Virus record (IMG/VR): IMGVR_UViG_3300043774_001557
From: an uncultured virus (IMG/VR IMGVR_UViG_3300043774_001557)
Lineage: Duplodnaviria; Heunggongvirae; Uroviricota; Caudoviricetes
Strand: one strand, 5' to 3'
Length of the DNA stretch: 20,000 nucleotides
Below, one piece after another: positions 1,618 through 19,098 of the stretch. A program made the translations under genes and the position numbers. The notes beneath the pieces are model-generated. The model saw only the letters and a program-made list of their open reading frames with translations. It was not told the origin of the DNA and ran no database searches. Positions within the stretch are counted from its first letter, which is position 1; every line of letters begins with the position of its first letter.

Positions 1618-3030
1618 ATGACCATCTTCATTGCAACGAATAATGCGTCTACCACGCTGGCGGGCGCAATTACTGCTGGTGCAACGACGTGCGCACTAGC
1701 CCCCGGAACCGGCGCCAACTTCCCGAACCCAACAGGGGGACAGCAATTCGCACTGACGTTCATCGACGCGGCCACTGGCCTGAATACCGAAATCGTTTAT
1801 GTGACGGCGCGTTCGGGCGACACGATCACGACGATGGTTCGCGCGCAGGAAGGCACGACGGCGAAGGCATGGCTGGCCGGCGATCTGGCAAGCAACTTCT
1901 ACACCCAGGGCCAAGATGCAGCAAAAGCGCAGATCCCAGGCGTGCAGAACAACACATACACGTACGCAGCAGATACGGGCGCAGCGAACGCCTACGCTGT
2001 TGCGCTTTCTCCCGCGCCCACGCTGTCCCAAGGCGCAATCATCGGATTCACCGCGGCTCACGCCAACACGGCGGCATCAACGCTCGCAGTCAATGGCGGT
2101 ACGGCCTATCCGATCTGGGGTGCCGCACATCAACCATTGCAGGGCACTGAAATTGCGCTCAATGGCTATGTCGAGGTTGAATACAACCCCACGCTGAACA
2201 GCGGCAATCCGGTCTATCTGCTCCTTGAGTGCACCGGCGGTGCCCTCCAGGTCGCCACCGCCACGCAGAGCCAGCATGCGGTGCAATTTGGGCAGTTGAC
2301 CGGTCTCATCGGCTCGATGCGCAACGCCAAGATGTCGGTTGCCGCCGCTTCTGCGACGGCCACATTCACGGCGGATCAGATCGTTGTCGGCACTGCGCTG
2401 AACGGTCTGGAATACCTGCTCCCGAGCTATAGCCAGTCGATCAATCTGGCTGCGACCGGCGCGGGCGGGATGGACACCGGTTCTGCCCCAGTGTCGGGTT
2501 ATGTCGCGCTGTATGCTATTTACAAGCCAAGCACGAACACGACGAACATCCTCGCGACGAACTCTACCAGCGCCGTTCCCTCGACGATTTATAGCGGTGC
2601 AAACATGCCAGTGGGTTATACCGCATCGGCGCTGATTGGCATCTGGGGAACCGATGGTACTGGAAAGTTCCGTATCGGCATTCAGCGCGAGCGGCGGGTG
2701 TCTTGCCCGTTTGTTTCTGTTTTGTCGGGCGGAACTGCCACGACTTACACGAGCACATCTCTCGTGGCCGCAATACCTCAAGGTGCAAAATCATGGACCG
2801 GCAATGCCTCCGTTGCATTGACTGCCGCCGCTGCATCCAATGGCATTTTCGTTGCTGGCGACGCGAATGATACCGGATTGCAAACGGCAATCAACCCTGT
2901 TGGTTCATCGTCAAATCAATCTGGCGGCGGCCTTAGCAATGTTCCAATCATCACGGAACAGGTCATGTTTTACAAAAACACTGTCGCAAACGCGACCTCC
3001 ACCGTTACCGTATCTTCCTACGAGTTCTGA
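1618..3030 (+). CDS. Tail fibre protein
   Basis: 470 aa A/T/G-rich; N-terminal NNASTTLA...EIVYVTARSGD...RAQEGT attachment region; YAADTGAANAY and GAGGMDTGSAP motifs typical of proteobacterial phage fibres. Confidence 0.85.
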   Translation: MTIFIATNNASTTLAGAITAGATTCALAPGTGANFPNPTGGQQFALTFIDAATGLNTEIVYVTARSGDTITTMVRAQEGTTAKAWLAGDLASNFYTQGQDAAKAQIPGVQNNTYTYAADTGAANAYAVALSPAPTLSQGAIIGFTAAHANTAASTLAVNGGTAYPIWGAAHQPLQGTEIALNGYVEVEYNPTLNSGNPVYLLLECTGGALQVATATQSQHAVQFGQLTGLIGSMRNAKMSVAAASATATFTADQIVVGTALNGLEYLLPSYSQSINLAATGAGGMDTGSAPVSGYVALYAIYKPSTNTTNILATNSTSAVPSTIYSGANMPVGYTASALIGIWGTDGTGKFRIGIQRERRVSCPFVSVLSGGTATTYTSTSLVAAIPQGAKSWTGNASVALTAAAASNGIFVAGDANDTGLQTAINPVGSSSNQSGGGLSNVPIITEQVMFYKNTVANATSTVTVSSYEF

Positions 3031-3032
3031 AA

Positions 3033-3200
3033 ATGAACGCATTCATCGACAAAAACGGTGTTCTAGTTTGCCTTAGCCAAGATGCGGAGAATGGTGGGGC
3101 GACAGCAATTCCAGTTCTTGACGGGACTGTGATGGAGGCCGGAAAATGGAAGTGGGATGGGAGCAAGTGGGTCGCCTACGTCGCCCCGAAACAACCCTAA
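3033..3200 (+). CDS. Small tail-fibre-associated/assembly protein (55 aa; not in ORF track)
   Basis: ATG 2 nt after the fibre stop; MNAFIDKNGVLVC...GKWKWDGSKWVAYVAPKQP; WxWDGxxW motif; stop overlaps the convergent SGNH stop (CTAA 3197-3200). Confidence 0.7.
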   Translation: MNAFIDKNGVLVCLSQDAENGGATAIPVLDGTVMEAGKWKWDGSKWVAYVAPKQP

Positions 3201-4408
3201 ATCCCCAACATCGTTTTCAACAGGATTTGGGCGAATACCACGTACATAAAATCATTTGGATGCGCTGCGCCGCTGCCGGTGATGTCTGCATAAGTCTTCT
3301 TTTGTAGTATCTGCAGCGACGTGGTGCTGAAGTCTGCGACGAACACGTCTGACAGCGTATTGGCGATTGAGTATTCGACGGCCCGATATTCACCCAACTG
3401 GGAATTGTTGCTGACGATCCAATCTGGATTGGATGGCCACGACGCGACAAGTATGATTTCGCACGCGGGATTCGCAGCTCGCTGGGCCATGATCAGGGCC
3501 ATGATGTTGGCTCGGAATTGCTCGGTCGTGACGCCGCCTGGTGGGTCGTTCATACCCAAGCCAATCACGAGCACATTCGTATTCGGATTGGAGAAAGCCG
3601 CAAGATGCTTCGTGAAGTAGGCTGACCCCTCTCCAGGGGCCGACACATTGTTCATCGTCACTTGGCCAGGGTAGAGCTTGGCGAGGTATGCCGTTGCGAG
3701 TGCAGCATATCCAGGCTGGTTCGGCGCTTGTTTGTCGATGGCAGTTGAGTCATCGCCCTCGGTGATACTGTCACCGGCAAATAGGATGTTCACTGGCTTC
3801 CGCGCGTTCAGCTTGGCTAGCATCAGCTTTGTCACCTGACTTGCCGTCGGCGACGTGCCGACATCTGCCGAGGTGTAGGTCACCGCGATTTGCCGAGATT
3901 GGTATCCACCCGCATCAATTCGCAAGGCCTTCCCGTCTTTGCGCACCGGCTGCCAGAGAGGCGGATTTGTAGGGTCAGCCGTGATCAGCCACGACAATTT
4001 GGTTCGTGGGATAGTGGAGCCGGGGGGGATGACGATTTTCCCTGCCACCAGTCGGTAATCTAGGTTTGGTTTGTAGAGCTGCCCTGTTTGCCGATTCCTA
4101 ACCTGTTCGATAGAGATGGCCGGACGCCAGAGCGAATAGGTTGATTTACCGGTGAGAGGAAAGATCGTTTCGTCGCGGACTGTTTTTGAACTCCAGAACC
4201 ACTGATCAACGTGGAAAGCTTCGACCAGATCGCTGCTGCAGGATGGAACCGAGCACGTTCCGGTGAATGTCGGGCTCACCGGAACGGGGGTGGCAATTGC
4301 AGTGGTAGCGCTTGGCTTGGATGAGCTAGGATGGCCGCTGTCGCCGCCGCATCCGCCGCAAACCATCAAAAGCAGTCCGAGAAGAAATGCGATAACTCCG
4401 CGCGCCAT
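3197..4408 (-). CDS. SGNH/GDSL hydrolase-family lipoprotein (paralog 1)
   Basis: Signal peptide with Cys (LLMVCGGCGG); blocks GDSITEG, NVSAPG, GLGMND, GAAHPND. Confidence 0.85.
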   Translation of the reverse strand: MARGVIAFLLGLLLMVCGGCGGDSGHPSSSKPSATTAIATPVPVSPTFTGTCSVPSCSSDLVEAFHVDQWFWSSKTVRDETIFPLTGKSTYSLWRPAISIEQVRNRQTGQLYKPNLDYRLVAGKIVIPPGSTIPRTKLSWLITADPTNPPLWQPVRKDGKALRIDAGGYQSRQIAVTYTSADVGTSPTASQVTKLMLAKLNARKPVNILFAGDSITEGDDSTAIDKQAPNQPGYAALATAYLAKLYPGQVTMNNVSAPGEGSAYFTKHLAAFSNPNTNVLVIGLGMNDPPGGVTTEQFRANIMALIMAQRAANPACEIILVASWPSNPDWIVSNNSQLGEYRAVEYSIANTLSDVFVADFSTTSLQILQKKTYADITGSGAAHPNDFMYVVFAQILLKTMLGI

Positions 4409-4513
4409 GCTTCTTCGCCTTGTTTTCCTTGAAAGGGGCGATGATACCTATCTTTCAGAAAGGCTCTGCCGATGAGTTCGCAGAAGTGTGGCGCGATGGT
4501 GATGCGCCCCTAG

Positions 4514-6037
4514 TCACATGCCCAAGATTGACTTCAGCACCGTCTGCGCATAGAGCGTGTACATCCAATCATTGGGGTGATTCACCCCGTTGCCTGTGAC
4601 GTCGTAGAAGCTCTTCGTGTTGAGCATTTCCGAGTTCCAAACTGCGCTCGTCACGTCAGCCACGGACACGCCCTGCGTCGACCCGGCAAGTTGGTACATC
4701 GCCGCGTTGTAATCGACGAAGGCTTGGTTGTTGGTCAGTGTCCAGTCGGGATTGCTCGGCCAGCTCGACACCAGCAGAACTTCGGTGGCGCTATTGCACC
4801 AACGCGCTGCGGCGATGATTTGTTGCAGATTGCTCTGGAACTGGGCGCCGGTGATGCTGCCGGCCATGTCATTCATACCGACGGCTACGATCACGAGGTC
4901 GCTGGCAACATCGGCGAGGTTGGCTGATGCATTAGAAAGCACGCTACCCGACGTGTATCCGCCCACGGCATGATTTCGCACGTACACCTGTCCCGGATAG
5001 TGCTGCGACAGATAGGCTATGACAAGATCGACGTAGCCTGGTTGCGCCGGCGCCATGCTCATCGACTTCGTGGAATTCAGTCCAGCCGTGATGCTGTCCC
5101 CCTCGATGGTGATTGCGACCTTCTGGCCGGCGGCCAGCTTGGCGAGGAACTTGGCCGGGTAGGACGACACCAGCGGCGGCGCAGGCTGATACAGCGGCGT
5201 GCTGTAGGTCGCGGCGATCTGTTTCGATTGGTAGTCATTTGAGATGCGCAGCGGAGTGCCTGCCTTGGTGGTTGGCTGCCACATGGCTGGTGTCGTCGGG
5301 TCTGCGCTGTTGATCCATGCTGGATCGGTCAAAGGGATCGCTGACCCCGCCGGAATCACGAGTTGGTTGCCCTGCAGCGTGTAATCGGTGCCTGGCACGT
5401 AGATCTGGCCGGTCTGCCGATTGCGCACCGACTCGATGTTCGCGACGGGGCGCCATAGCACATAGGAAGCGCGGCCAGACGTGGGCATGATCGATTCATC
5501 CCAGACTTTCAGCGATGTCCAGAACCACTGATCGACGTGGAACTGAGCAACGAGATCGCCAGCGCATGCTGATGATGCGCACACCGTGAATCGGGTGAAA
5601 TCGTAGGTTGGCGGGTTGGTTGCGGCGGTCTTGCTGGGCGGCGCGACTGCGGTGGCGGTCGAGTCGGTTGTGTTTTCGCCTCCGCCGCAGGCCGCCAGCG
5701 CGAAAGCTACGGCTGCGAGGGCGAATCCAAGTCGATGATGGCGCCGACCTCGCGCATGCGATTCATGATGCGCTCGATCGTCTCGGCGTCCAGTTCCAGA
5801 CGGGCCATGGCGAAAAACAGCATGTACGCGCTGATCTCGCGTCGATTCCGATCGATCGGCGACCTCGACGTGTACCGGCGAAACGCTCGCCTGTCCGCCA
5901 CCCCGAACAGATCGGCTATCTGGCTGCCATCCATTCCGAGGCTTTTCTTCAGCGACTCGATTTGTTCCGCGCTCGGCGGTTCGTAATGCATGCAGGTATC
6001 CATATGCGCGAGTAAGCGCACGAAAACTGAGTTTCAT
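4514..6037 (-). CDS. SGNH/GDSL hydrolase-family lipoprotein (paralog 2) with ~100-aa N-terminal extension overlapping the HTH gene
   Basis: GDSITAG, NHAVGG, GMND, GVNHPND; lipobox LAAC at Cys117 (5689-5687); only in-frame ATG/GTG/TTG upstream of the lipobox is ATG 6037, preceded by AAAGGA. Start position less certain than the domain call. Confidence 0.8.
   Translation of the reverse strand: MKLSFRALTRAYGYLHALRTAERGTNRVAEEKPRNGWQPDSRSVRGGGQASVSPVHVEVADRSESTRDQRVHAVFRHGPSGTGRRDDRAHHESHARGRRHHRLGFALAAVAFALAACGGGENTTDSTATAVAPPSKTAATNPPTYDFTRFTVCASSACAGDLVAQFHVDQWFWTSLKVWDESIMPTSGRASYVLWRPVANIESVRNRQTGQIYVPGTDYTLQGNQLVIPAGSAIPLTDPAWINSADPTTPAMWQPTTKAGTPLRISNDYQSKQIAATYSTPLYQPAPPLVSSYPAKFLAKLAAGQKVAITIEGDSITAGLNSTKSMSMAPAQPGYVDLVIAYLSQHYPGQVYVRNHAVGGYTSGSVLSNASANLADVASDLVIVAVGMNDMAGSITGAQFQSNLQQIIAAARWCNSATEVLLVSSWPSNPDWTLTNNQAFVDYNAAMYQLAGSTQGVSVADVTSAVWNSEMLNTKSFYDVTGNGVNHPNDWMYTLYAQTVLKSILGM
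5707..5991 (-). CDS. XRE-type HTH transcriptional regulator (KorC/Aca-like architecture), nested in the SGNH ORF
   Basis: MHYEPPSAEQIESLKKSLGMDGSQIADLFGVADRRAFRRYT = HTH pattern; alternative start ATG 6003; palindromic operator in the upstream promoter. Confidence 0.8.
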   Translation of the reverse strand: MHYEPPSAEQIESLKKSLGMDGSQIADLFGVADRRAFRRYTSRSPIDRNRREISAYMLFFAMARLELDAETIERIMNRMREVGAIIDLDSPSQP

Positions 6038-6090
6038 GATCGTCCTTTCGGGATGTCGGACCGCGCGATATGCGAGGTGCCAGTGCGATC

Positions 6091-6119
6091 AATATAGGTC
6101 CGTCGGACCCATCAGTCAA
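6091..6119 (-). promoter_or_regulatory. Sigma70 promoter with palindromic operator in the spacer
   Basis: Minus strand TTGACT (6119-6114)-17 nt-TATATT (6096-6091); spacer contains GGTCC-N3-GGACC (6097-6109); partial second copy at 6050-6062. Confidence 0.8.
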
Positions 6120-6132
6120 GCAATACCAACAC

Positions 6133-6158
6133 ACCGCCTCCGGGCGGTTTTTCTTTTT
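6133..6158 (+). terminator. Rho-independent terminator
   Basis: ACCGCC-TCCG-GGCGGT followed by TTTTCTTTTT. Confidence 0.75.
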
Positions 6159-6170
6159 CCGGGGCATCTC

Positions 6171-6494
6171 ATGGATTTCACGACGGGCGCCTTTGGCGCT
6201 GTTGCGGCTGGCGTTTTTGCTGTCTTCGGATGGGTGCTCAAGCGCTCAGTCGCGCAGATGGACCAGAAGCTGAGGGATCACAGCGACGCACTGCAAGAGC
6301 AAATCGCGGCGCTGGCTGCGTACAAGCTTCACGTCGCAGAGCACTACGTCACACAGAGCGAATTGACCAAGGCCATCGAGAGCTTGGACAAGACCATGCA
6401 GCGCCTGTTGGACGCCGTTGCTGCGGGCGCTAAAGAAACGCGAGAGGGCTTTGCCGAAATCCATCGGCGCATTGATACCAAGGCCGACAAATGA
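6171..6494 (+). CDS. Holin/antiholin-like membrane protein (one TM plus coiled coil)
   Basis: MDFTTGAFGAVAAGVFAVFGWVLKR...RIDTKADK; ATGA overlap with the endolysin; start placed at ATG 6171 after the terminator. Confidence 0.65.
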   Translation: MDFTTGAFGAVAAGVFAVFGWVLKRSVAQMDQKLRDHSDALQEQIAALAAYKLHVAEHYVTQSELTKAIESLDKTMQRLLDAVAAGAKETREGFAEIHRRIDTKADK

Positions 6495-6952
6495 CCCCCC
6501 AGGACTTCATTAAAGCCATCGGGCCGGCAGCGCGCGCATCAGCAGTTAAGTCCAAGATTCCCGCCAGCTTCACCGTCGCAGAGGCCGCGCTGGAATCAGC
6601 CTGGGGCGCCTCGCAGCTCGCGCGTGATGCGTTCAACTTGTTCGGCGTGAAAGCAGACCGGGCATGGGGCGGCGCGGTTCTGACGATGCCAACGCGTGAG
6701 TACCTGGGCGGCGGCAAATGGGCGATGGTTCAGGCGCGCTGGCGCAAGTACAGCGACTGGCTCGGCTCGGTTACCGATCACGCGCAATTCCTGCTGACGA
6801 ATCCGCGCTACAGGCCCGCATTCCAGCATGCGGACGGAGAGGGCTTTACACGCGCCGTTGCCGCCGCCGGCTACGCGACCGATCCGCAGTACGCGGACAA
6901 GATCATCTCGATTATCCGCCAGCACAACCTAGCCGACTTGGACAAGGCATGA
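6491..6952 (+). CDS. Endolysin, glycoside hydrolase family 73 (FlgJ/glucosaminidase type)
   Basis: AALESAWG, NLFGVKA and GYATDPQYADK motifs. Confidence 0.92.
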   Translation: MTPQDFIKAIGPAARASAVKSKIPASFTVAEAALESAWGASQLARDAFNLFGVKADRAWGGAVLTMPTREYLGGGKWAMVQARWRKYSDWLGSVTDHAQFLLTNPRYRPAFQHADGEGFTRAVAAAGYATDPQYADKIISIIRQHNLADLDKA

Positions 6953-7470
6953 GCAACGTAGAGCAAACGCACGAACAAGCGCACTCGTTTCGTGAGGTCG
7001 TGGAATTCCCCGGCCACGAGGCTCGCACCGAGTCGAGCGAGTTCCGCAAGAACAAGCGCGTACTGGTGAAGCAACTGGACCTGCCGTGCTGGATCTGCGG
7101 ATCGCGCGACAGCCGAGAGGTTCATCACCTCCACGAATGGAGTTTGTGGCCGGCGCTGGACCCGGAAAAGGTTCTGGACACGCTGCACGTATTCGACCCG
7201 TATGGATTCACGCACAAGATGGGCGAGCAGCCCATCGAATCGCCCGACGACATCCGCAACCTTTTGGTTTTGTGCGGCCACCACGAAGTCGGCGGCGTTC
7301 CGGTGCCAGGTGGCCATCATCGCGGCGTCGATCTCGGCGTCCATGACCTGACCATGCCGACGTGGCTGGCGCTCAAGTCCGTCAAGCCTGGAATCGAAAT
7401 CACAAAGGCCATCGGCCACGCGCAGGACGAAGACCACAAGCTGCGCGGCACCAAATCAACCAAGGAGTAA
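6949..7470 (+). CDS. HNH-like zinc-binding protein
   Basis: ATGA-coupled to the endolysin; CWIC, EVHH, DDIRNLLVLC..HH, HHRG...GVH. Confidence 0.7.
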   Translation: MSNVEQTHEQAHSFREVVEFPGHEARTESSEFRKNKRVLVKQLDLPCWICGSRDSREVHHLHEWSLWPALDPEKVLDTLHVFDPYGFTHKMGEQPIESPDDIRNLLVLCGHHEVGGVPVPGGHHRGVDLGVHDLTMPTWLALKSVKPGIEITKAIGHAQDEDHKLRGTKSTKE

Positions 7471-18323: not shown

Positions 18324-18626
18324 TCAAGCCGCGATCAACTCAGGCCGCCATTCGCGCACGATGGCCTCGAACTGCTTGCTGTAGCCAAGCGTGTCGGGGT
18401 AGACGTTGTTGCGAGCTACCCAGGCGAACACCAGCACTACGTCATTGACGATCTCGTCATCCAGACCCCAGGAGGTGGTGAAATCATACCCGCCGCACTC
18501 AGCGGAGTTCCACCAAGCGAGAAGGAAGTCGGCCACACGGCGGCTTTGTCCGCTGTCCCGCTGCGCATGCGCGATCAATCGCTCAAGGGCGGCACGCACT
18601 TCGTCGTTCATTTGAATCATGGTCAT
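18324..18626 (-). CDS. Conserved hypothetical protein (DSGQSRRVADFLLAWWN motif)
   Basis: AAGGGG RBS; motif I recognise from proteobacterial plasmid and phage proteins. Confidence 0.75.
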   Translation of the reverse strand: MTMIQMNDEVRAALERLIAHAQRDSGQSRRVADFLLAWWNSAECGGYDFTTSWGLDDEIVNDVVLVFAWVARNNVYPDTLGYSKQFEAIVREWRPELIAA

Positions 18627-18631
18627 TCCCC

Positions 18632-18784
18632 TTATCCGCGCCGACGCTGCGAGCGCTGGTTGTCTTCGAACTCTTCCATGTCCTGCACCGAATAGCCTTC
18701 CTTCTTGATGCGCCATGCCACGAAGCACATGCACACCAGGGCCATCAGAGCGCAGGTGGCCAGAAGCACATAGAGGCGGCTCAT
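18632..18784 (-). CDS. Small membrane-anchored protein
   Basis: ATGA coupling; N-terminal TM LYVLLATCALMALVCMCFVAW. Confidence 0.65.
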   Translation of the reverse strand: MSRLYVLLATCALMALVCMCFVAWRIKKEGYSVQDMEEFEDNQRSQRRRG

Positions 18785-19098
18785 GCGGCCACCCCATACG
18801 GCGAACGATCCCTGTCGTAGGCAGCTTGGGCGTCGGCTTGCAGCGAATCCCATTTCTTGCTGTCGATGACGCTGGACAGGCTCACAGTCGTCCCGGCGAG
18901 CGTCACGTCATCCAGATCAAGTTCGCCGCGGTCGATCTCGCCCCACAGATCGACGGCAACATCACCGAGATGGCCGTGGCCGATGAGCTGCGTCTTCCGG
19001 CCCTTGGCGAGCTGCGGTTGCCCAGCAAGAGCGCGCTCAATGCGAACGGCCTCATTGCTCATGGCGGCTTGCCGGGTGATGGCTGTGTCGTTGGTCAT
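18781..19098 (-). CDS. First gene of the leftward early operon, hypothetical
   Basis: GAGG RBS before ATG 19098, just downstream of the PL-like promoter. Confidence 0.7.
   Translation of the reverse strand: MTNDTAITRQAAMSNEAVRIERALAGQPQLAKGRKTQLIGHGHLGDVAVDLWGEIDRGELDLDDVTLAGTTVSLSSVIDSKKWDSLQADAQAAYDRDRSPYGVAA

Follow-up and report, generated by a model that had tools for sequence, protein, structure and literature searches.

The 20,000-nucleotide IMG/VR record IMGVR_UViG_3300043774_001557, assigned to an uncultured virus of the class Caudoviricetes and referred to here as the window, carries on its minus strand a gene for a small helix-turn-helix (HTH) regulator that lies entirely within the 5' part of a longer open reading frame (ORF), in a different reading frame. 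The longer ORF has 507 codons (4514..6037) and, according to the ORF list, Pfam and a scan for start codons, consists of a run-up termed here the shadow leader, a signal peptide with a lipobox, an N-terminal domain and an SGNH domain. The shadow leader (5732..6037, residues 1-102) is basic in composition and without a predicted fold; the signal-peptide h-region LGFALAAVAFALAA and the lipobox with Cys117 occupy 5687..5731, as judged from the sequence and from alignment with a paralogue; and the SGNH/GDSL hydrolase domain (4559..5101, residues 313-493) is matched by Pfam PF13472 with an E-value of 8.1e-22 and 79 bits against a cut-off of 32.9. The nested gene (5707..5991), recognised from the ORF list, Pfam, AlphaFold and Foldseek, encodes an XRE-type HTH protein of 94 amino acids (aa), and the ORF list shows its frame as 6021/5991..5707. 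It is read in the +1 frame relative to the long ORF, so that the long ORF is in the -1 frame relative to the HTH gene, and its TAG stop codon (5709-5707) falls within the codons of the h-region. At this junction the HTH frame ends with ...AIIDLDSPSQP-TAG, and the same DNA read one base earlier gives ...HARGRRHHR-LGFALAAVAFALAA-C117-GGGENTT.

The segment RRHHR-LGFALAAVAFA-LAAC-GGG, read as n-region, h-region and lipobox, places the lipidation site at Cys117 and fits the [LVI][ASTVI][GAS]C pattern. Lipoproteins normally start a few tens of residues before this cysteine, but in the frame of the long ORF the sole ATG, GTG or TTG between the upstream stop codon and the lipobox is ATG 6037, 116 codons before Cys117 (TGC 5689-5687), and a reading of the window found no CTG, ATT, ATC or ATA in frame within the 20 codons ahead of the h-region. 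A Shine-Dalgarno (SD) sequence AAAGGA (6043..6048), recognised in the window and in homologous loci, stands 5 nt ahead of ATG 6037, and further upstream there is a sigma-70-type promoter, TTGACT-17 nt-TATATT (6091..6119), which matches 10 of 12 consensus positions and belongs to a layout shared by homologous loci. An earlier note, made from the letters of the window alone, had drawn attention to this arrangement: a single start, a ribosome-binding site (6048-6043) below a near-consensus promoter, 116 open codons up to Cys117, and a complete 94-aa gene (5991-5707) in the +1 frame with its stop within the h-region codons. The start scan and the coordinates bear it out on each of these points.

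The long ORF has the GDS block typical of its family, present as IEGDSITAG, and its product is predicted from the Pfam domain to be an SGNH carbohydrate esterase. Immediately downstream lies a paralogue (3197..4408, minus strand; ORF list and Pfam), an SGNH lipoprotein of 403 aa with an ordinary start and signal peptide. The two proteins share 43% identity over 407 columns, and residue 6 of the paralogue aligns with residue 103 of the long ORF, with the signal peptides in register, so that the long ORF has ~100 additional residues at its N-terminus.

Homologues of the HTH protein were found in IMG/VR contigs and in Burkholderiaceae genomes (Caballeronia catudaia, Paraburkholderia bannensis). 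In a sample of Burkholderiaceae they are present in 45 of the 396 scored genomes (5 further genomes were unscored), and they also occur in 18 phage records, 15 from Burkholderia and one each from Paraburkholderia, Bordetella and Serratia; a DNA search of the window region itself against phage records gave no match. A further 50 database clusters with homologues are named hypothetical, XRE-family or HTH cro/C1-type. Two sets of loci were compared. The first comprises 32 distinct HTH genes from Burkholderiaceae genomes and IMG/VR, the window's own included, after exclusion of two loci with no ATG at the expected start (L013, L035) and of 4 duplicates. The second, obtained by a profile-based scan of IMG/VR, was reduced from 72 loci to 59 by removing four loci in which no ATG was found (L063, L064, L070, L104) and 9 duplicates.

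Over both sets the -1 frame is stop-free along the whole HTH gene in 81 of 91 distinct loci. In the first set it is open in 22/32 loci, and the +1 frame is open in 1/32; in the second set it is open in 59/59, a figure that does not estimate the frequency in the whole family, since the motifs used for retrieval typify the open subfamily. Among isolated phages it is open in 4/7 (PE067, phiE131, vB_E192a and IPK) and not in the other three (IFTN8, vB_SBP33 and BZS1). The open genes of the first set share 39-81% protein identity (median 55%); third codon positions have therefore turned over many times. When synonymous codons were permuted within each gene, a conservative procedure because the codons are already the selected ones, the -1 frame stayed open in 22% of trials for the HTH gene of the window; the probability of staying open ranged from 0.008 to 0.24 per gene among the 22 open genes of the first set and averaged 0.11 in the second. 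Even if every gene had a probability of 0.24, at least 22 open genes out of 32 would be expected with a probability of 1e-7.

The codons of the HTH gene record the same constraint. A stop in the -1 frame requires T at the third position of an HTH codon (T3) followed by a codon starting with AA, AG or GA. T3 was found in 0/481 such dangerous contexts against 238/1518 safe ones in the 22 open genes (Fisher 5.5e-31), and in 0/1350 against 545/4178 in the second set; these counts treat loci separately, and their zeros are partly circular, the open class being defined by the absence of stops. The size of that class, its contrast with the closed class and the permutation odds are independent of this circularity. 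In the 10 closed genes there is no such avoidance, with T3 in 35/205 dangerous and 96/693 safe contexts (p 0.26). The zero holds in all three thirds of the 22 open genes (0/184, 0/131 and 0/166), and since the constraint is equal across them, reading of the -1 frame must start upstream. Judged from these comparisons, selection keeps the -1 frame open, and chance is excluded.

A frame that is kept open need not be conserved as a protein, and here the two frames differ. Column entropy in the HTH frame is 0.85/0.56/1.39 bits at codon positions 1/2/3, the usual coding pattern, and over the same columns mean pairwise identity is 55% for the HTH protein and 30.5% for the -1 shadow peptide. The HTH frame is thus the one selected at the protein level over the overlap, and the HTH gene encodes a real protein. 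The shadow peptide, to judge by the alignment, is constrained only to stay stop-free and not in sequence. Selection therefore acts on both frames, as expected of an overprinted pair, but on the -1 frame for openness only. The roles are reversed near the 3' end, where a variable, low-confidence HTH tail (...GEQQP*, ...DSPSQP*) overlies the conserved n- and h-region of the cargo (...RWRAAAVA...). The real dual coding that the earlier note had proposed from a single sequence is upheld by the 81 of 91 open loci and by the avoidance of stops in every third of the gene. Its suggestion that homologues be inspected for a stop-free overlap running into a lipobox gave a broader answer, the lipobox being one of several cargo types reached. 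Stops in the overlap, or a normal ATG just before the signal peptide, which would have marked the copy in the window as a mutant, are as a rule absent from the homologues.

Translation of the -1 frame has a candidate start. In the first set, all open loci contain an ATG ahead of that of the HTH gene, preceded at 5-9 nt by GAAAGGA or a similar SD. The HTH ATG is preceded at best by a weak GGA, as judged by eye. The two ATGs are 10, 16, 25, 31, 34, 43, 46, 49 or 52 nt apart in the first set, the window having 46 nt (ATG 6037 to ATG 5991); distances of 28, 37 and 55 nt occur in addition in the second set, and each of the twelve places the upstream ATG in the -1 frame. When the 59 loci of the second set were scanned in all three frames, an SD-ATG was detected in 55 of them, every one in the -1 frame. 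Insertions and deletions between the ATGs thus come only in multiples of three, a restriction that would be expected only if a reading frame connected the upstream ATG with the sequence after it. In the window (6052-6043) and its homologues the SD lies within YCC-GAAA/GAGA/GCAA-GGR (UACG in one locus), a context that would form a mini-hairpin of 2-3 bp with a stable tetraloop. A further start codon in the -1 frame, GTG, ATG or TTG, is located at position +107, over the Q-W residues of the RQWRKY motif of the HTH protein, in 19/22 open loci of the first set; it arises from CAG, CAA or CAT followed by TGG, is ATG in 7 loci, which requires the rarer CAA codon for Gln, and may allow a shorter leader, but the window, L001 and L010 are without it.

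The relatives with a closed frame suggest how this arrangement may have arisen. When a covariance model of the leader was used in a scan, four closed loci gave matches as well, located about 130-270 nt ahead of the HTH gene. Five closed loci share a module consisting of promoter, palindrome, hairpin, CCCGAAAGGAC and ATG, and there the ATG begins a conserved protein of 52-65 aa (MEKTLDILKTEAEIGKLMAET..., with a hydrophobic tail); the module is therefore a working start site. In these loci (L024, L028, L031, L034 and L037) it lies about 190-235 nt upstream of the HTH genes, the gene for the 52-65-aa protein ends at a GC hairpin that resembles a terminator and has a GAAA-type loop, and the HTH ATG follows about 12 nt after this hairpin, without an SD; the equivalent place ahead of the HTH ATG is occupied by CCCGCC-GAAA-GGCGGG in closed-type loci. 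The open layout would be the closed layout minus the small gene, whose start now reads the HTH gene out of frame. In each of the 10 closed loci the -1 frame is interrupted by 1-7 stops and has no cargo joined directly to it; the genes further downstream use start codons of their own, at a distance and in any frame. Two of them, L032 and L033, keep the SD-ATG and the leader, yet have four -1 stops and no joined cargo. The closed loci are accordingly a natural control: openness of the -1 frame goes with cargo joined in that frame.

In every open locus the -1 frame leads into a cargo, and in the 22 of the first set it runs 164-1193 nt past the HTH stop. Judged by Pfam and by sequence, some cargoes are lipoproteins that carry an SGNH, SASA or GH43-like domain, others are secreted, with a signal of the signal-peptidase-I type and without a Pfam match, and two families consist of small, apparently cytoplasmic proteins. 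A pattern search for signal-peptide-like Cys contexts, some of which are signals of the signal-peptidase-I type and not lipoboxes, found no ATG, GTG or TTG 12-40 codons upstream in 40/44 loci; the exceptions are L021 and L030, where a start overlaps the HTH stop (xTGA), L071 and L095. In the small cytoplasmic cargoes, too, residues are conserved ahead of the first possible start codon. In L047, L048, L088, L099 and L109 the -1 frame runs for about 25 non-signal codons past the HTH stop to ...MAKGLC..., stop-free, and this cargo has its own ATG, which is still in frame with the long ORF. In phage records the annotated cargo starts are placed inside the h-region (PE067, MALGC...) or about 140 nt past the HTH stop (vB_E192a), which suggests that the layout has gone unrecognised by annotators. 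The annotated phages have the HTH gene between the lysis cassette and the tail-fibre gene, followed by genes named SGNH/GDSL hydrolase, acyltransferase, O-acetylase or 'pilin'. By analogy, both slot and content are those of a lysogenic-conversion moron, and the target of the esterase is probably acetyl groups on the O-antigen or another envelope polysaccharide, as judged from the cargo families and the phage slot.

The run-up itself has no predicted fold. Residues 1-99 of the leader in the window contain 18% Arg and carry a net charge of +9; across loci the leaders are hydrophilic, with 8-21% Arg and net charges from -2 to +20, mostly basic. Structure prediction for the -1 leader from a 51-row alignment gave a predicted template-modelling score (pTM) of 0.19 and a mean predicted local distance difference test score (pLDDT) of 57.9, with helices confined to residues 3-11 and 102-117, the latter being the h-region. 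When the first 130 residues of the long ORF were compared with a collection of 5.8 billion proteins (lengths 278-888), no protein was matched, which means no more than that comparable extended forms, at a similarity that can be detected, have not come out of gene calling. A twin-arginine translocation signal was considered as well, as RR precedes the h-region in the window, and was rejected because the motif is not conserved among homologues.

As to the regulator, the Pfam match of the HTH ORF, to Xre-like-HTH PF20432, has an E-value of 0.009 and 16.7 bits, under the gathering cut-off of 25.8 bits; the fold assignment therefore rests on AlphaFold and Foldseek. The AlphaFold model has five helices and a pLDDT of 87.8, with residues 90-94 below 50. 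The top Foldseek matches are all XRE-type HTH proteins, namely Aca1 on palindromic DNA, Aca10, the HTH domain of AcrIF24, C.Esp1396I, HigA2 and MqsA, the first seven rows having probabilities of 0.8-1.0 and the three after them 0.66-0.95, with E-values of about 0.1-0.5; profile matches to the set of Aca, AcrIF24 and C proteins are weak too (E 0.014-1). Names of homologues in public records include 'XRE family transcriptional regulator' and 'HTH cro/C1-type'. The HTH identity given in the earlier note is thus sustained by the five-helix XRE-like fold, whereas the family profile gives it little support. A public gene call of the protein begins four codons earlier (98 aa), at an ATG that homologues do not conserve.

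The regulator would find a suitable binding site in its own promoter. In the window the promoter spacer contains the operator-like palindrome GGTCC-GAC-GGACC (6097..6109, minus strand; read from the sequence), and every open locus has a palindrome between -35 and -10, with half-sites that vary by locus and remain complementary. This spacer palindrome is operator-like for a dimeric HTH protein, and we infer sequence-specific binding of the regulator to it. The promoter is the only promoter-like site on the minus strand in 3000-6400, in a scan whose total was no higher than that of shuffled sequences. An internal promoter giving a leaderless HTH transcript was also considered; no conserved -10 element was seen by eye ahead of ATG 5991.

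Between promoter and HTH gene the transcript is predicted to be structured, with hairpin H1 (6059..6079; RNAalifold and pair counts) in the 5'-untranslated region and two adjacent hairpins, H2 (6036-6021) and H3 (6020-6005), in the leader (6005..6036; pair counts). In 17 sequences H1 is paired in 94% of cells, with compensatory changes in 5/7 pairs, H2 in 85%, with A-U to G-C swaps, and H3, which stands between the two ATGs, in 68%; in the window 5/7 pairs of H1 form. In 64 sequences the values are 90.5%, 87.8% and 75.5%, and cells with double changes number 62 against 21.7 in shuffles, in an alignment that was made with the covariance model and leans towards it. H2 also accounts for the apparent conservation of the leader peptide (MK..F/L-R-A). 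It is a speculation that the leader hairpins set the balance of the two starts. A scan of 5600-6300 against Rfam found no family.

Taken together, the comparisons favour a reading to which we assign a probability of about 70%: ribosomes that initiate at ATG 6037 would read through the HTH gene and produce a lipoprotein precursor with a leader of about 100 aa, and the HTH protein would be made from its own ATG. The cassette would then be a prophage lysogenic-conversion (moron) unit in which one mRNA carries two overlapping frames with separate initiation. A strong promoter with an operator in its spacer would drive a structured leader carrying the SD and ATG 6037. Initiation there would open the 507-codon ORF, whose first ~100 codons, being the HTH gene read in its -1 frame, would give a basic, unstructured leader; the precursor would insert with its N-terminus inside, be lipidated at Cys117 and be cut by signal peptidase II, a cut that would release a periplasmic SGNH carbohydrate-esterase lipoprotein. 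The XRE/Aca-like HTH protein of 94 aa would be made from the conserved, SD-poor ATG 5991 and would probably repress its own promoter through the spacer palindrome. As ribosomes would reach the cargo already in its frame, it could do without a start codon, and one cargo could be exchanged for another at the conserved joint in the signal peptide. The export and processing proposed for the precursor, repression of the promoter by the HTH protein and a role of the esterase in surface polysaccharides are, like translation from ATG 6037, inferences.

Several points weigh against this reading. Translation in either frame is deduced from comparison between loci, one of the two sets of which was retrieved selectively, and export of a precursor with a ~100-aa leader is an assumption; we know of no described lipoprotein precursor with a ~100-residue leader ahead of its signal peptide, and a literature search turned up none. 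ATG 6037 is predicted to be partly paired in H2, which takes up its U and G. Pieces from three metatranscriptome runs (Logan contigs) cover 4400-4634, 4807-5009, 5383-5660 and 6017-6300, with none over 5680-5999, and are uninformative on transcription of the junction or on start sites. Another run, probably of DNA and possibly the source of the record, contains the window in full. In L018, L021, L030 and the phage phiE131 an ATG, GTG or TTG overlaps the HTH stop, and in several loci an ATG comes just after it (MALGC...); ordinary coupled initiation could serve the cargo there, and the reason for an open frame is less obvious, although the xTGA loci also retain the open -1 frame and the upstream SD-ATG. 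For the small cytoplasmic cargoes, moreover, an extension of ~100 junk residues is awkward.

The earlier note had left three mechanisms open, a long basic leader, a -1 frameshift and a non-canonical start, and the homologues separate them: the long leader agrees with the frame-locked SD-ATG and with a constraint that acts from the first codon, whereas slippery heptamers are found in 3/81 loci and the window has no near-cognate codon in the 20 codons before the h-region. If ribosomes underwent a programmed -1 frameshift late in the HTH gene, close to its 3' end, or if transcription slipped there, an HTH-transmembrane-SGNH fusion would result, with the HTH protein alone as the unshifted product. 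The cargo frame is indeed -1 to the HTH gene, as in orfA/orfB of the IS3 type, the cargo lacks a start of its own, and proteins that join an HTH domain, a transmembrane segment and a periplasmic domain exist elsewhere. However, the few X_XXY_YYZ heptamers in the HTH frame of the 81 open loci occupy three different positions, runs of 6 or more A/T occur in 2/81, and a shift near the 3' end leaves unexplained both the openness of the first two thirds of the gene (0/184, 0/131) and the -1-locked SD-ATG at 12 distances, so that this mechanism appears very improbable. A different proposal keeps the upstream start and gives it another task. The cargo would have its start at the signal peptide or close to it, either from an unusual codon or because ribosomes terminating at the HTH stop reinitiate, and the ORF from ATG 6037 would be a long upstream ORF whose product is not a functional precursor, its ribosomes serving to open the structured leader, to protect the mRNA or to deliver ribosomes. 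The four loci with a start overlapping the HTH stop, and the cargo group with an ATG 2 nt after it, could be served in this way; L032 and L033, which keep SD-ATG and hairpins without cargo, suggest that the leader ORF may have a role of its own, and the hairpins around both ATGs are conserved. Yet the -1 ORF has no stop before the cargo, so its ribosomes necessarily make the fusion; in the window neither a canonical start nor any of CTG, ATT, ATC and ATA is available in frame in the 20 codons before the h-region, which itself begins ahead of the HTH stop; and if translation of the leader alone mattered, openness up to the 3' end (0/166 in the last third) would not be needed. We regard this proposal as unlikely.

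It could also be held that the arrangement has no function, the open frame being a by-product of G+C-rich DNA and the SGNH copy a 5'-damaged duplicate of its neighbour that has lost its start. In DNA rich in G+C it is common for alternative frames to be open, the neighbouring downstream paralogue is intact and starts normally, and the permutation value of 0.22 for the gene of the window would, taken alone, be unremarkable. Against this, 81/91 distinct homologues are open at 34-84% identity to the window HTH and are thus not near-identical copies; not one of 1831 opportunities has a stop-creating T3; the +1 frame is closed in 31/32 loci; loci without joined cargo have accumulated 1-7 stops; and unrelated cargo types share the start-less junction. 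Absence of function is already contradicted by these comparative data and is scarcely credible.

A wider generalisation can be put forward tentatively, as an idea we hold less probable than not. The cassette may be a general platform for start-less cargo, in which ribosomes from the SD-ATG read the autorepressor gene in the -1 frame, cargo is recombined at the ...RWR-AAVA... joint, an SD-less internal ATG serves the repressor, and the three hairpins, possibly bound by the HTH protein, set the choice of start; it would have arisen by loss of the small upstream gene. Binding of an HTH protein to hairpins would have an analogy in Aca2, which has been described as binding leader RNA. If this holds, the dose of regulator and the dose of cargo are tied at the choice of start site.

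The surroundings of the cassette agree with its assignment to a prophage. Divergent from it on the plus strand are two lysis genes, one for a small membrane protein (6171-6494) and one for a glucosaminidase-type endolysin (6491-6952; Pfam PF01832, E 5.5e-35), and it is their presence alongside the cassette that identifies the element as a prophage. Between the -35 box of the cassette and the lysis-gene start at 6171 stands a terminator-like hairpin ACCGCCTCCGGGCGGT followed by TTTTTCTTTTT (6133-6148, plus strand), with a T-run to about 6158 and no upstream plus-strand gene. The endolysin ORF overlaps a 250-codon ORF (6718-7470, plus strand) with a weak HNH_2 match (E 0.0023), and in phage vB_E192a an annotated HNH endonuclease adjoins the endolysin in the same neighbourhood. 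Elsewhere in the window there are a patatin-like phospholipase (PF01734, 8694-9500, plus strand, E 1.9e-29) and a DUF7673 protein (18324-18797, minus strand, E 2.3e-30), and most other ORFs have no Pfam match.

Long same-strand overlaps in bacteria and phages are few and often disputed, since the evidence usually comes from a single genome. Here about 95 dual-coding codons have the backing of 81 diverged loci, of selection visible in the codons and of a natural control. One practical consequence is that standard gene callers mis-annotate the cargo, as in PE067 and vB_E192a. Should the long precursor exist, a lipoprotein signal preceded by about 100 unstructured basic residues is acceptable to the Sec/Lgt/LspA pathway, and a phage would link repressor and payload by way of start codons that compete; reporter fusions would be an easy test of so small a system. 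Phages carrying the cassette are described in PMC7266877, the passages of which retrieved by term search make no mention of the nested-regulator layout, and at the level of abstracts the literature search yielded no description of a regulator nested in the run-up to a cargo or of start-less cargo served in this way.

The arrangement shares features with several known systems and coincides with none of them. Among phage genes nested out of frame, Rz/Rz1 of phage lambda, E within D of phiX174 and L of MS2 are well known, and like the cassette they consist of a same-strand gene lying wholly or largely inside a phage gene in another frame. The likeness to Rz/Rz1 extends to one partner being a lipoprotein and to the adjacent lysis cassette. 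In Rz/Rz1, however, it is a small lipoprotein gene that is nested, with its own start, and both products are functional over the overlap, whereas in the cassette the nested gene is a regulator and the outer frame is merely a stop-free run-up to a swappable cargo. Aca proteins and the C proteins of restriction-modification systems are HTH autorepressors of strong promoters, and have in common with the cassette a small XRE-type HTH protein, a palindrome-bearing strong promoter and a regulator within its own operon; the payload of the cassette differs in consisting of envelope enzymes and not of acr or restriction-modification genes, the E-values of the fold matches are weak (Foldseek 0.1), and to our knowledge no aca or C gene is nested out of frame in its payload. 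The IS3 family resembles the cassette in that a small HTH ORF, orfA, precedes an ORF in the -1 frame, orfB, that lacks its own start, but the cassette conserves no slippery heptamer, keeps the -1 frame open from end to end of the HTH gene with an SD-ATG upstream, and carries a cargo other than a transposase. The extended signal peptide region (ESPR) of autotransporters, about 25 conserved residues, is comparable in adding residues N-terminal to a Sec signal peptide, although in the cassette the extension is about 100 non-conserved residues long and is the shadow of another gene. In its position between lysis genes and tail fibre the cassette resembles the prophage morons for acetylation of the O-antigen or envelope (SGNH esterases, OafA/AT3), a likeness that extends to the cargoes of PE067, phiE131, vB_E192a and BZS1, which are annotated as SGNH/GDSL hydrolase, acyltransferase or peptidoglycan/LPS O-acetylase.

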